Virus record (IMG/VR): IMGVR_UViG_637000107_000010
Length of the DNA stretch: 64,000 bases
Reading direction: 5' to 3' (one strand)
DNA from: a virus
Taxonomy: Duplodnaviria > Heunggongvirae > Uroviricota > Caudoviricetes
Shown in pieces: positions 12,001 through 18,000 of the stretch (position 1 is the first letter of the stretch; each line of letters begins with the position of its first letter). A program made the position numbers.

Positions 12001-15000
12001 AGTGCAAAAATAGCGGCGCGGGAATAGTCCAGAATACCCGGGGTTGCGCGAAGTGCTGCGGACCATTCTTTGAACGGACTTTCTCTTTTCAGGACGATTT
12101 CTTTTGCGCGACGATAAACGCTGCCCGGAATTTCATAAATATTAAAATCCATCGGAAGTGTGGCTGCTGCAATCTCCACATCCAGCGTATCGAAGGTGTG
12201 TACTAAATTCGGATTGCGATCGGTTTTGTTCCCGCCACCGGCATTTGCACCGGAAGCCGTACGGGTGATACGCGAAACACGATTTCCTTTCATCCACTCT
12301 TTTGTCAGCAGACCCCGATCAGTGTAGTCAGCGTCCAGGTATGCCTCGAAAAAAGCAGTTATCAGTCCCAGGTCTGAATTACCGGGATTAGGGAAAACTT
12401 TGTCAGTGTCGCGTACCAGTTTGTGAAGGTCGCGAATCTCCAGCGGGTCGAGCAGCTTTGTTTTGTGAGAAATGGCCAAGGCAGTAACAGCCGGCAGTTC
12501 TTCCGCCCGTGCTATATGTAATGCCTGAAGTTCTTCCCGTGCAACGTGCGTTACTGGTTTTTCGCTGCCGTGTTGCGCAAGCCAGCGAATGGGCAGCTCC
12601 TGACCAGAAACCGGCAGGAGCATATTCTCCTCAATCTCCGTCATGTCTTCGCCGTTGACGTTGGTATTGTCAGTACTGGCTGGTTTCTCCTGCACGGAGG
12701 GAGAGGGCGCGATAAATACCATTGTAATGCCATCTTCCCCGCCTTTTTCGTATCGGTTGCAGAATTCGGTATCAAACACGCCTTCAGGTGGAAGGTCATT
12801 CACAACGGGTAAATGGACGCGAACGGGTTTTTTAAAGTCGTCTTCATCATAATCGTTGTCATCCATTGCGGTAATGCAGCGGGAGATGGCAACAGATAAT
12901 TTTTTTGCTGTAGTCCAGTAAAAACCACCTTTAATTCCCAGACGTTTTCTGACTTTGTCATTTTTTGCTTCGCAATATAGCGCAAATTCTTCTTTATCAG
13001 TGCTCATTGATAAACCTCATTACAGATTTAAGGGTGAACAAATCCCTGCCATTGCTGGCATTTTTAATCCGTTGGTATGGTGTTAATATGGCTGGAGGGT
13101 TATCCAGCCGGTGTTTCGTTATTCAGGTACAGCGATACTTTTTTTACCGGGAGGCATTCACCAGAAATTTTTTGCTCGTCTCTTGCCTGGAGGCAGGATT
13201 CTTTACTGGCATAAATTCCGGTAATCACATTCTGTGATTCACCCGTTATAAGAAAAACCGTCATCATCAGTGCAAATGCTGAAGTCATTGACGTTCTCCG
13301 AAAATACCAAGTTCAAGAAGAGCAATTCGGGAAAGTATGGAATTATCATTGAGCAGATAAGGCTCATATTTCCTCATGTTAATGGCATCTTCAGTAAACT
13401 CCCGGTTACTGAGCAGAACACCAATATCAAAACAACCTTCAGACGTATTAACGTTTGGTAATAACGTTTCCATTATCGCGTCCTCAACAATGAATTTTGT
13501 GATGCAGTGCCTGGTGCCTCCAGGTGACGTTAACCAGTTAACAATTAACGCCGGATACAGAGAATCCACCCATAACACTGTTTTTGGTTTTAACTGTTCC
13601 GCGTGCGCTTAGCCGCATTCACCGCATCACAAAATTCACTTTAAAAAGGGCGGCAGAGCAGCCACGGAGTAAAACTGATACCGCCAAACGTCACCAGAAA
13701 ATTGATAACAGAGGGCGTTGCAGCGGGGTTGTCACTTAAGCGTATGGTCAACCTGACAACCCGGTGTCCTCAATGGGGAAGGAATAACCCCGCCATACTT
13801 ACCGCCGCGCCATTTCGCGGAGTGCCACAACCGGAAGCGCACGTTCGAAGAAATCTAACGACAAGCCTTCTAAGGGAAAGANCTTCGCCGTACGCTTTCG
13901 CGTTATGCACTGACTTTTCAGGGAAATATCCTTTCAGTAAACTGTCAGTACCGGATTCTTATCCGTGTCCGGCGCACGACCACACGTGACAGCGTGTTGG
14001 TCTCCATTTTTAACCCAGAACCTCAATGGAGGATAAAATGCCAAACAAAAAAAGAAATCCGCTTATTGAAAAACAGATTGAATGCCTGGTAAATCAACTC
14101 AGGCAATCAGGGTTATTAAAAACTCATTCAGAGTTGAGGCTCACAGAATCAGCATTCGACGATAAATTAAATAATGTCCTTTATAATGGCATTATTGATT
14201 TTAATCGTTCTGTTGGTCGCCGCGGCCCTGCTGGTGTTTCCTTATAATTACCAGTCAATCCAGAGTGGACCGTGTTCAGCGTAAATATAACTGTACACAT
14301 CCAGATTATATTTGTGGTCTGTTAAGAACAGGCCGCAAATACATGCCGAAGCTTCCAGTGCAGCGGCTCTGTTACTGAATAACCATGTAGCAACATTCCA
14401 GCGTTTTTCTGCATCCCAGTCTTTCTCAAGGCCTGATACCATGAAGAAACCGTTAGTGTTGCCATCAAATAATTCTGTTTCCAAATTTTTAAGCAATGCC
14501 TGATGGACTCTTGCCAGGTATTCCGCCGGAATTTCGCCACGAATTCTGATGAGATTGTCATAAACAAACATGTTCCCCGCATATGGCGATTTTTCTTTCT
14601 TGTTTTTTAAACCAGCATCATGAGCAAACTGATCAATTTCTTCTTCCGTTGGTTTCGTATTGATGTTTTGCGCTGTCGTTTCTGCAATTTTATTTGCCAC
14701 ACTCTCTGAGTCGTGTTTATTTATAGACGCACAGAAATACAATCCGGTAAACGCATCGCGCACATTACGAGCCATATTATCAGTGTCTTTTTTCGTTACC
14801 GATTCCAATTCAAGTTCGTTCAGACGATGACGAAGTGTGTGTGCTGCAATCTCCTGGATTGAAGGAGGTAAATCTTTAAATTCCATCGTCAACCTCATCA
14901 GTCAGTGTTTCTGGCTAACCAGCGACGCGCGCCAGCTTCAGTTTTAAACGTTTTGCTTTTGGTATACGTCATCGCGGTGAACGTACCGTCCTGGTTGGGG

Positions 15001-18000
15001 AACACGCCACATACCAGAGATTCGTTGTTGCCAAGATTGAGCGTATCCATGTTGACCTCATTTCCCCTTAACGCCGGGGTAGCGGAACAAAAACCTGCTG
15101 CATAGTTATTAAAGTTGAACCCTGCCGTCATGTTCTTACGCCTCGGGCTGGCTACTTAACCCCTGACCACTGCCTGGTAACTCGAAGTATTGCCCTGCAT
15201 TCTGTGGGGCGGGGTGAGGGAATGAATGAAGTTTAGAAAAACGAACATTTAAGGTCAATGTTTTTTTATCAAAACATTTTAAGCAGGCAGCTGTTACGCC
15301 ATCACTACGATGGCATACAGTTAATCAAATAGATGAGGTTGGTTAAATATCTTGTTGAATTTTAAAGCATACTCCCAATATGCAAGATAGATCATCCAGC
15401 ATAATTGAAGGGTAGCGAGGATTCGTGGGGACTAAAAGAATATCCGGCCCTTCTATCTCCAGTTTGCGAATGACAGGCGTTGTGGTCCCTTTGGGTAAGG
15501 CAAGGACAATATTTCCTGGTTGTACGATTCGATCGGGATCAACAAAAACTGTTGAACCATTTGGGATGGAAACTCCACCACCAGATGTCGACATACTGTC
15601 ACTCTCTAGAACAACAGCAAAGGTATTGGCCGGGATTTCTCCGACAAGCTGCACACAAGAGGTTATTGAGGAATTTTTCATATAATCACTCCAGCTTGCT
15701 GCCTGCTGAAGTGATAGTAGCGGAACCGTTTTTATCGGCGGTAAAGATAGATCAAGCGAATCACCTGTATTTAACTCTCCTCCATTAAGAAGCCAATTTT
15801 CGTTTACTTTCAATATCTTTGCCAGTGAACTTATGTAACGCGAGGACGGCGCTCCTCCACCGTTCATCCATTGACTTACGGAGCCTTTTGATGCGCCAGT
15901 GGCATTGACAAGGTCTTTGCCTTTCAAGTTTAGCGCATGCATACGTTGGGTTATGCGTTCAGATATTGTTTGCTTGTTCATGTTTTGATTTTAAAACACA
16001 GATGGTTTTGTTTCTTGACTTTCTTTGGTTTTGATTATTAAACTTTTGGCGTTCAGTTTTATGGAGCGACTCATGAAAAAATCAGAAGTATTAGGCTATT
16101 TTGGCGGAGTTGTTAAAACAGCCGCCGCTCTAGGAACGTCAAAAACCACAGTCAGCATGTGGGGGGAAGACGTTCCGTGGAAATGGGCGTTGCTAATTCA
16201 GGCAGTCACTGCCGGGGCGCTCAAATATGAGTTACACATACCGACGGTTGTCATTCCCGATTCTGATCATAATCCGCCTTCTAACCAAGGGGGGATTCAT
16301 GAAAATCAAGCATGAACACATCCGCATGGCGATGAATGCCTGGGCGCGTCCTGATGGCGAAAAAGTTCCGGCAGCTGGAATAACCCAGGCTTATTTTGAG
16401 TTGGGTATGACGTTTCCTGAACTGTACGACGACAGCCATCCGGAAGCCCTGGCTCGCAATACCCAGAAAATTTTCCGCTGGATAGAGAAAGACACCCCTG
16501 ATGCAGTTGAAAAAATGCAGGCTCTGTTACCGGCGATCGAAAAGGCAATGCCGCCTCTGCTGGTGGCCCGTATGCGCAGTCACAGCTCTGAATATTACCG
16601 TGAGATCGTCGAACGGAGGGATCGGCTGGTGAAAGATGTGGATGATTTTGTCGCAGCGGCGATCGCCTGGGGCACCCTGACTAACAGTGGGGGTCAGCCT
16701 GGTAATGCTGTTGTCGTGCATTGACCAACAATATTCATGCCGGATTTCTTCCGGATGTTCGAGGGTAAAGTTCGGTATCAGAAGAGGTGAGTATGGCTAA
16801 TGCCTGGCTCAGATTGTGGCATGACATGCCAAATGACCCCAAGTGGCGAACGATTGCCAGGGTATCAGGACAGCCAATCGCAACAGTGATGGCAGTGTAT
16901 ATCCATCTTCTGGTGAGCGCGTCACGAAATGTCACGACATGTCACGGCGTGTCACTACGTGGTCACATTGATGTCACGACGGAAGATTTAGCAAGTGCGC
17001 TTGATGTGACGGAAGACGTAATTGATTCAATTTTGCATGCAATGCAGGGGCGGGTTCTGGATGGTGACCTTATTTCCGGATGGGAAAAACGTCAGGTGCT
17101 GAAAGAGGACAATGGTAACGTTTCGCAAACGGCAAAATCCCCGGCAGAGCGCAAGAGAGCGCAGCGGGAGCGGGAAAAGCTGCGGAAACATAATGCTGAT
17201 TGTCACGATGAGTCACGACGTGTCACGCATCTGTCACGACAAGTCACGACAGATAAAGATACAGATAAAGATACAGATACAGAATTAAACCCCACACATA
17301 ACGCGCGCGAGAGTATTCCGACCAGTGAGTCGAATGGTGCGCCGTTGCAGACAGCCGAACCTGAATACCTGGACGGCNTGAGCGAACCGATCGGGAAATT
17401 TTCGATGACTACTGTCTGGCAGCCGTCGCCGGATTTTCGACAACGGGCAGCAGTGTGGGGTATGGCTCTGCCTGAGCCGGAATTTACACCTGCTGAGCTT
17501 GCCGCATTCCGGGATTACTGGATGGCGGAGGGGAAGGTTTTCACGCAGGTTCAGTGGGAGCAGAAATTTGCCCGCCACGTGCAGCACGTCAGGGCACAGG
17601 TAAAACCAGTCAGCAAGGGGGGAAGCCATGCAGCATCAGGTGGCACGGCATCACGGGCAGTTCAGGAAATCCGGGCTGCACGCGAACAGTGGGAACGTGA
17701 CAACGGATTTATCAGCAACGGAAACGGCCTGGAAGCTGTGGGAGCTCATGGGGGAGGTGTATTCGAACCGCTGGACTCAGAAGAACGGGGCCGCACCTTC
17801 GAAGCTCTGGATTGCCCAGATTGGTGCGATGACTGAACAGCAAATCCGTCTGGTGTGCCGTCAGTGCATGGACCGCTGCCGGGCGGGTGAAACGTGGCCC
17901 CCGGACCTGGCTGAGTTTGTTGCGCTGATTTCGGAGAGTGGGGCAAATCCATTTGGTCTTACGGTGGATGCCGTGATGGAAGAGTACCGGCGCTGGCGCA

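Follow-up and report, generated by a model that had tools for sequence, protein, structure and literature searches.

The stretch of DNA analysed here, a 64,000-nucleotide (nt) viral sequence (Caudoviricetes; IMG/VR record IMGVR_UViG_637000107_000010) hereafter called the window, contains the immunity region of a lambdoid prophage. We focus on three of its open reading frames (ORFs) between 14.0 and 15.1 kilobases (kb): a 212-amino acid (aa) ORF, X; a 69-aa ORF converging on it, Y; and a 50-aa ORF, YdfA. Gene order and control sites place this segment at the promoter end of an early-left operon that is repressed by CI, in a lambdoid prophage of the dicB type. Within it, the C-terminal domain (C-domain) of X, the Y gene and the 5' leader of Y are, from comparison of related loci, inherited as one unit, for which many alternative units exist. 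Our best guess is that X and Y form a partner pair in phage conflict, with Y acting in the lysogen and X in the lytic state. We put the probability of the whole reading, an early-left operon with a mobile X/Y/leader cassette that works in this way, at approximately 0.5.

The ORFs had been described in an earlier note on this DNA, and its coordinates, ribosome-binding sites, 11-nt spacing and convergent 69-aa ORF with a GGAGGA site are all accurate. That the ORFs are real is borne out by full-length matches in PHROGs, by RefSeq annotation and by constraint on the X C-domain and Y. The principal elements are the following:

13915-13943, plus strand: putative promoter of Y (TTTTCA, 17-nt spacer, TAAACT)
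13949-14037, plus strand: 5' leader of Y (conserved hairpins before Y)
13979-14906: cassette, as delimited against Qin (K-12) and phage Tritos (blastn break points, gene maps)
14038-14247, plus strand: Y, 69-aa gene (phrog_4274; GGAGGA at 14028-14033)
14174-14284, plus strand: hydrophobic frame of 36 aa (32 aa if counted from the second Met), not considered a gene
14248-14886, minus strand: X, 212-aa gene (phrog_2151; ATG preceded by GAGGT)
14248-14595, minus strand: C-domain of X, residues 98-212 and stop codon (invariant columns, AlphaFold2 [AF2])
14713-14886, minus strand: N-terminal domain (N-domain) of X, approximately residues 1-58 (profile search, PHROGs)
14898-15050, minus strand: ydfA-like DUF1391 gene, 50 aa (GAGGT 5 nt upstream of the start)
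15230-15258, minus strand: PL/dicBp-like promoter (TTGACC, 17-nt spacer, TAAACT)
15258-15277, strand not assigned: OL-like operator, a palindrome (repeat families, motif scan)
15343-15981, minus strand: cI-type repressor, 212 aa (Pfam HTH_3 and Peptidase_S24; NCBIfam DicA/LexA-like)

Operon context and regulation

A 20-base pair (bp) palindrome, ATGTTTTGATAAAAAAACAT (15258-15277, read on the minus strand), lies between cI and the 50-aa gene and matches the two best sites of the cI-cro intergenic region (15981-15999 and 16027-16045; 15980-15998 and 16028-16046 in the repeat and inverted-repeat families D2, I1 and I2). A degenerate operator motif occurs five times in the 64-kb window against 0.51 matches expected, and three of the five are these sites. 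The palindrome is abutted by a leftward TTGACC-17-TAAACT promoter running from 15258 to 15230, as detected by consensus scan. The cI-cro region itself has three operator-like sites at 23-bp spacing (15980, 16003 and 16026), the last two overlapped by a rightward TTGACT-18-TAAACT promoter, a layout resembling OR3-OR2-OR1 of lambda. Homology to phage Tritos and to an Escherichia sp. prophage (L007), both of which have repressors that differ from the window cI, starts at 15216, 14 nt past the -10 hexamer of the PL-type promoter; this break is where the boundary of the immunity module would be expected.

The 50-aa ORF belongs to Pfam DUF1391 (PF07151, the YdfA/YdaF family; 102.1 bits versus a cut-off of 27.3, E = 1.2e-29), is labelled DUF1391 in RefSeq, and has 88% DNA identity to K-12 ydfA; an alternative upstream ATG at 15131 would extend it to 77 aa. 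Leftward from OL/PL, the order is ydfA, X, dicF, dicB, ydfD and recE, all on one strand, with X starting 11 nt past the ydfA stop codon. In the Qin prophage, the dicBF operon begins with ydfA, downstream of the promoter dicBp, which is derepressed approximately 22-fold on deletion of dicA, the CI analogue; a polycistronic transcript extends from ydfA through dicF and dicB to ydfD, and RNase III and RNase E process DicF (PMC10448788). Because an OL/PL-type site precedes ydfA, the first gene of the repressor-controlled operon, X is most likely an early gene. In Salmonella, X homologues and the repressor gene are on opposite strands; the homologues come right after a Cox- or Cro-like gene and before recE.

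The X protein

X matches phrog_2151 over its full length (E = 1.8e-147) and is confined to Escherichia and Salmonella, where it forms 153 clusters at 90% identity (it is called "Ybl81" in some sources). When its profile was compared with 1.84 billion representative sequences, 54 proteins were recovered, approximately 45 of which match the first 50-90 residues only. These N-domain-only matches are prophage proteins of 40-200 aa that start MEFKDLP...NVRDAFTGLY and have unrelated C-termini. PHROGs 1363, 9419, 6937 and 33007 are likewise limited to X residues 1-51 to 1-75, and the N-domain alone is present in Stx2a phages, in the PL operon after kil-gam-recT-exo.

The C-domain (approximately residues 98-212) recurs at approximately 26% identity in Salmonella proteins whose N-terminus differs (MFNVKRNG...) and some of which carry an XRE helix-turn-helix insertion. 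Alignment of the E. coli and Salmonella clades shows 24 invariant columns, 22 of them in the C-domain: P101, M106, Y109, I113, I115, G117, I119, P120, Y123, L135, F140, D141, G142, N145, G146, F148, A166, W168, F170, A176, E178 and I183. The ratio of nonsynonymous to synonymous substitution rates (dN/dS, or omega; Nei-Gojobori) is 0.12-0.23 for residues 98-212 and 0.4-0.8 for residues 1-97. AF2 predicts a beta-beta-alpha-beta-beta-alpha-beta sandwich for the C-domain, with a predicted local distance difference test score (pLDDT) of 75-88 over residues 100-200 and a dip near 151-160.

The earlier note had recognised no signature in either the 50-aa or the 212-aa ORF. This description applies to X, as it does to Y: searches of Pfam, NCBIfam, PADLOC, PDB sequences and fold libraries matched neither. 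It does not apply to the 50-aa ORF, which is a DUF1391 gene. Profile searches with X, Y, YdfA and the hydrophobic frame (Pfam, PHROGs, NCBIfam, PADLOC) returned only DUF1391 and PHROGs of unknown function; PADLOC-DB v2 contained no match to any of the four at E <= 0.1, and no PDB sequence scored below E 0.03 when X, Y and the N-domain were searched there, both as single sequences and as profiles. The Pfam, PADLOC and structure searches suggested in the note produced no confident profile or structural match of X to a routine phage early function (recombination, Kil, Gam, anti-restriction), and no recognisable toxin or antitoxin domain was detected in X or Y with Pfam or NCBIfam. YdfB and YdfC were considered as relatives of X and rejected, as they share no similarity with it.

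The Y gene

The stop codons of Y and X abut, convergently and with zero gap. Y matches phrog_4274 over its full length (E = 1.4e-51) and has a conserved core, QxE...QLxxSGLLK...F..KL...I...R..PAG..L. Its dN/dS (Nei-Gojobori) is 0.06-0.27 in its own frame and at least 0.8 in both other frames. Because constraint is restricted to this frame, the GGAGGA-type Shine-Dalgarno sequence is invariant and the leader is conserved, we regard Y as a real, separate gene under purifying selection. Both X (212 aa) and Y (69 aa) are annotated by RefSeq in a 99.9% identical O157:H7 locus.

The earlier note had also drawn attention to a 32-aa hydrophobic peptide overlapping Y. The frame is present at 14174-14284, but it is most likely not a gene: the Salmonella orthologue has AAG in place of the ATG, and both the stop codons and the hydrophobic residues vary. 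As a type I toxin the 32/36-aa peptide was rejected on this loss of the start codon and on an omega of 0.8-2.3 in its frame, which indicates no purifying selection.

Leader and putative promoter of Y

The Y leader has three proposed hairpins. Hairpin 1 (13951-13956/13967-13972) has the form CCGGAU...GUCCGG; hairpin 2 (13979-13986/13993-14001) differs in sequence between clades. The third would form downstream of them, where CTCCAT (14002-14007) can pair by complementarity with ATGGAG (14026-14031), a stretch that shares bases with the Shine-Dalgarno sequence GGAGGA (14028-14033). RNAalifold analysis of 22 distinct leaders gave 20 base pairs, six with compensatory changes, all in hairpin 2, and the single-sequence fold has a z-score of -2.9. 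The invariant U-G pair of hairpin 1 and further G-U pairs fit the plus strand only (the U-G pair would be an A-C mismatch on the minus strand), which implies a plus-strand RNA. An invariant strong Shine-Dalgarno sequence and ATG stand ahead of at least ten different ORFs.

In seven otherwise unrelated upstream sequences, a -10-like hexamer (TAAACT, GATAAT, TATAAC, TATAGG, TAAATT, TAAAAT or TAGTAT) lies 6-7 nt before hairpin 1; in the window, the putative -10 of Y ends 7 nt before it. This arrangement suggests a promoter that starts RNA at hairpin 1. The motif scan of the window detected no CI operator motif near this putative promoter, and Y is the only candidate for lysogen expression in the gene set.

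Hairpin 2 and the T-run that follows it were considered as a terminator or attenuator and rejected: the T-run is not conserved among distant leaders. Rfam, searched with 10-20 kb of the window and with five related loci, did not cover the leader; only DicF was identified in the window, apart from a sub-threshold STnc100 match. Prophages of the K-12 arrangement (ydfB/ydfC, no Y) retain the -10-like hexamer and hairpin 1 opposite the operon (K-12 locus L013, approximately 1790-1830; L026 and L020), where they could give rise to an antisense RNA against the ydfC 3' end. By eye, the kilS-sieB intergenic block GCGCCTTCGTGTTGTGCCC of Rac (L135, 3040-3070) resembles the DicF-Y intergenic sequence GTACGCTTTCGCGTTATGCAC of the window (13890-13910); the small RNA (sRNA)-proximal part of the intergenic region may be a module common to both.

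Cassette exchange and pairing of X and Y

In blastn comparisons with K-12 and Tritos, similarity breaks at 14907 and 13978, such that the X/Y unit replaces ydfB and ydfC. A scan of IMG/VR for the hairpin-1 pattern yielded at least 120 loci, and the cluster counts given here rest on the loci listed. At least 41 hairpin-1 sites among the loci compared are followed by the K-12 arrangement (ydfC, no Y). In at least 78 loci the leader precedes an ORF that is at least 50 aa long, and these ORFs fall into at least ten unrelated Y clusters. Among the matches listed, each Y cluster has one convergent partner type on the early strand, and among at least ten alternative cassettes, the X/Y pair of the window occurs most often. 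The partner consists of the constant N-domain and a type-specific C-terminus (0-150 aa); in some types it is an unrelated small protein.

All genes with the X C-domain that we examined are met by a converging Y homologue, with stop codons abutting or 3' ends overlapping. This holds for 29 E. coli-type loci among those examined. The distant Salmonella loci (8/8) also keep Y, at 42-52% identity over the aligned part, next to an X of approximately 26% identity. In a further Salmonella protein (P0253), the same alternative N-terminus is joined to a different C-terminus, and its gene is followed by the leader and a different small ORF.

X/Y units can also be stacked: L003-L006 (approximately 5000-6700) have two in tandem, the first with an X of 200 aa and a Y of 69 aa, the second with an X of 119 aa and a Y of 64 aa, and each unit has a leader copy to itself. 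Decayed copies of the window type (type A) occur as well: Y is frameshifted and X intact in L104, L115 and L006, and X is broken and Y intact in L038. Because either partner can be inactivated, a (possibly cryptic) prophage does not strictly need one of the two genes in order to carry the other. One alternative Y type, MAKFTVRIELRD... (94 aa; L031, L050 and L095), reaches the Pfam threshold for GhoS, a type V antitoxin endoribonuclease (21.2 bits versus a cut-off of 21, E = 2.8e-4). A PADLOC search with nine alternative Y types and one alternative X gave only a chance-level match to Cas7b (E = 0.055).

Our literature search found no paper that names the accessions of the X and Y proteins, "ybl81" or the PHROG identifiers, or that describes this hotspot; a filamentation screen in UTI89 concerns the K-12-type locus only.

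Proposed function and alternative explanations

We propose that in the lysogen, CI silences X while Y would be transcribed from its own, operator-free promoter, with its translation tuned by the leader. Upon induction or infection, strong transcription from PL would produce X and run antisense over Y and its leader, shutting Y down through transcriptional interference or double-stranded RNA. The X C-domain and Y would be cognate partners, one binding or neutralising the other, and would serve as a conflict pair of the lysogenic and lytic states, in competition between phages or between phage and host (e.g. as an exclusion factor and an early antidote). Either of the two could be the one that neutralises the other.

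A more far-reaching version, which we offer as a speculation with the odds clearly against it, is that X/Y cassettes constitute an undescribed family of polymorphic two-component prophage conflict modules, in which a lysogen-expressed Y, in the sieB slot and under the shared structured leader, is matched to the variable C-domain of an early X in at least ten specificities. Each prophage would then combine a factor for exclusion or sensing with an antidote or target specific to its own allele, and lambdoid prophages of E. coli and Salmonella would trade these specificities by recombination at the N-domain and the leader.

Several observations weigh against the conflict-pair proposal. No terminator-like site was found between the cI stop codon and the operator, and weak read-through from PRM into ydfA and X may occur in lysogens. 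The putative Y promoter (TTTTCA-17-TAAACT) is weak by consensus. Masking of the Shine-Dalgarno sequence by CUCCAU/AUGGAG pairing, a hypothetical basis for control by the leader, has zero covariation, and the pairing is absent from the single-sequence centroid fold. Neither protein points to a specific activity: Y appears soluble, with no hydrophobic or membrane segment and no known motif, and the invariant residues of X do not form a catalytic-looking set. The predicted C-domain has no structural match in PDB or BFVD below E 1e-3, and none of 50,697 records of free phages contains the X C-domain or Y. The co-inheritance of the C-domain and Y could be plain linkage, as only the N-domain and the leader, which flank both, are conserved for homologous exchange. 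In lambda and Rac, moreover, the gene abutting sieB is not known to be functionally related to it, so convergent abutment alone is no proof of partnership.

The last two points lead to the most serious rival: X may be an ordinary accessory early protein (e.g. for host takeover or anti-defence) and Y an independent moron in the sieB slot, the two co-varying by recombination in their flanks. We consider it somewhat unlikely, though a substantial share of the probability falls to it. Some cassettes in which X is an N-domain only (52-61 aa) still carry Y, and decayed copies with either gene broken exist, as this explanation would allow. Against it, the X C-domain and Y remain adjacent, with overlapping 3' ends, despite deep divergence and a swap of the N-terminus; one exchange point is thereby placed inside X, between N-terminus and C-domain, with no such point observed from the C-domain to Y; and there is one partner type per Y cluster among the matches listed.

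An arrangement like that of toxin and antitoxin, with X as an early effector toxic to the host and Y as a cognate inhibitor that guards the lysogen and may also neutralise the X of incoming related phages, seems to us improbable. The constant N-domain, variable C-terminus and small cognate gene do recall polymorphic toxin/immunity pairs, the operon already holds the toxic genes dicB and dicF, and one alternative Y reaches the GhoS threshold. That match is borderline and comes from another cassette type, however, and the X C-domain has neither conserved catalytic-type residues nor a toxin-like fold match. Copies with a frameshifted Y and an intact X also persist, a weak objection given that X would be CI-repressed in any case.

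The earlier note had placed the 50-aa and 212-aa genes in a lysogen-expressed slot like that of rexAB and had seen there the most plausible site for an exclusion or abortive-infection module; such genes would be co-transcribed with cI from PRM. Both genes follow cI directly and share its strand, with no terminator-like site found before the 50-aa gene, and X is without known function in Pfam, PADLOC and NCBIfam. Nonetheless, an operator and promoter of the OL/PL type intervene, and the 50-aa gene is ydfA, which in Qin opens an operon, dicBF, under repressor control. The Salmonella X homologues lie opposite to the repressor, the cassette moves independently of immunity type, and PADLOC matches are zero. 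A slot co-transcribed with cI is not supported, and we consider a rexAB-like module very improbable. Position on the same strand downstream of cI does not imply expression in the lysogen if OL/PL intervenes, and the convergent gene is the better candidate. The note's choice of neighbourhood was sound in that lambdoid phages keep an exclusion gene there, in the sieB slot; its premise of a lysogen-expressed slot downstream of cI is not supported.

Least credible of all is the idea that Y and its leader are not an expressed gene and that the hairpins act on the minus-strand early transcript (e.g. in processing or stability of the DicF precursor): although the region falls within a long untranslated stretch upstream of dicF that is processed by RNase III/RNase E in K-12, and hairpin 1 is also present in K-12-type loci lacking Y, the frame-specific purifying selection on Y, its protein homologue at 42-52% identity, the invariant Shine-Dalgarno sequence and ATG before at least ten different ORFs and the A-C mismatch expected in hairpin 1 on the minus strand all speak against it.

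The region from ydfA to dicF in dicB-type lambdoid prophages is a hotspot in which the N-domain and the leader serve as "handles" for at least ten alternative gene pairs. It offers a compact entry point to new exclusion, anti-exclusion or toxin-like functions, and to the study of how prophages switch lysogenic and lytic gene pairs by convergent transcription.

Flanking genes and prevalence

The remaining features of the region are as follows:

11763-13007, minus strand: truncated recE, 414 aa (Pfam Exonuc_VIII)
13100-13288, minus strand: ydfD-like DUF1482 gene (Pfam DUF1482)
13285-13473, minus strand: dicB, cell-division inhibitor (Pfam DicB; RefSeq annotation of an identical locus)
13648-13699, minus strand: DicF sRNA (Rfam RF00039, 75 bits, E = 1.6e-15)
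15132-15342: gap of 210 nt
from 16074, plus strand: cro, then a ydaT/cII-like gene

Beyond the truncated recE lies an integrase fragment of 183 aa (11230-11781, minus strand), and in a near-identical locus (TR01, L001) the left-arm genes are followed by IS66 and IS256 elements. The left arm of the prophage looks degraded, and the immunity and replication genes look intact. In TR01 (7764-8102), RefSeq annotates only a 113-aa "LexA family protein", corresponding to the C-terminal half, versus the intact 212-aa cI ORF of the window. The window is of draft quality: ambiguous bases (N) are present at 13882 and inside the ORF at 16787-17836, and none is present in X, Y or the leader.

Lambdoid prophages of O157:H7 and O121 E. 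coli match the window at 99.9% identity, and 572 of 5426 complete E. coli genomes (approximately one in ten), O157:H7 and O121 strains among them, contain at least 80% of window positions 13580-15345. In Salmonella, repeated C4 antisense RNA (Rfam, 74-82 bits) and isrK elements (L003, 8251-9576; L012, 6783-6870) are located in and around genes of the Ash/Derepression family downstream of the cassette, a region that looks like the antirepressor control region of P1/P7.

Comparison with known systems

One of the closest known systems is the dicBF operon of Qin (dicA, then dicBp-ydfA-ydfB-ydfC-dicF-dicB-ydfD-ydfE). The two share a repressor-controlled backbone, in which a DUF1391 gene comes first behind the promoter and the untranslated region before dicF, DicF, dicB and ydfD follow downstream (92.8% identity over 13978-13369). 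They differ in that Qin has ydfB and ydfC between ydfA and dicF, where the window has X and the convergent Y, and in that the repressor of the window, a complete CI, has an S24 autocleavage domain and other operators. The resemblance to rexAB fails at the control region: OL/PL of lambda is located beyond rexB, whereas in the window a site of this type separates cI from the 50-aa gene.

The position of Y is that of sieB. In lambda, N (35037-35438, minus strand) and sieB (34482-35036, plus strand) meet without a gap immediately after OL/PL; Rac has, in this order, racR, ydaG, ydaF (DUF1391), an opposite-strand sieB that overlaps ydaF by 4 nt, the sRNA kilS, and kilR. As annotated in both, sieB is antisense to the early-left operon with its 3' end at the first early gene or genes, and Y lies in the same way. 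The resemblance to Rac extends further, in that kilS and the division inhibitor kilR come after sieB as DicF and dicB come after Y. sieB is reportedly expressed from its own promoter in lysogens. By its sequence, Y occupies the sieB slot without being a SieB homologue: it is a soluble protein of 69 aa with no similarity to SieB and no match to that family in Pfam, PHROG functions or NCBIfam, whereas SieB proteins are membrane proteins of approximately 160-190 aa. Y also co-varies with the facing X C-domain and shares its leader with unrelated ORFs; we know of neither partner co-variation nor a shared structured leader for sieB.

Prophage defence with cognate self-immunity is known from BstA/aba of Salmonella phage BTP1 and sieB/esc of P22. 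The likeness is one of concept: near the immunity region, a factor made in the lysogen has a cognate counterpart, from the same phage, that acts in the lytic growth of that phage. There is no relation in sequence or fold, and the partner in the window would be a protein domain on an early gene. Polymorphic toxin/immunity and toxin-antitoxin systems likewise combine a constant N-terminal module, a variable C-terminal module and a small neighbour, with many alleles at one locus. X and Y differ from these systems in having no delivery or secretion domain or recognisable toxin fold, in being convergent rather than co-directional, and in probably being expressed in different states rather than together. 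In kind, the locus is thus a known one, an accessory, swappable early-left locus with a sieB-like antisense gene; what is new is its gene families, their paired polymorphism and the leader that they share.

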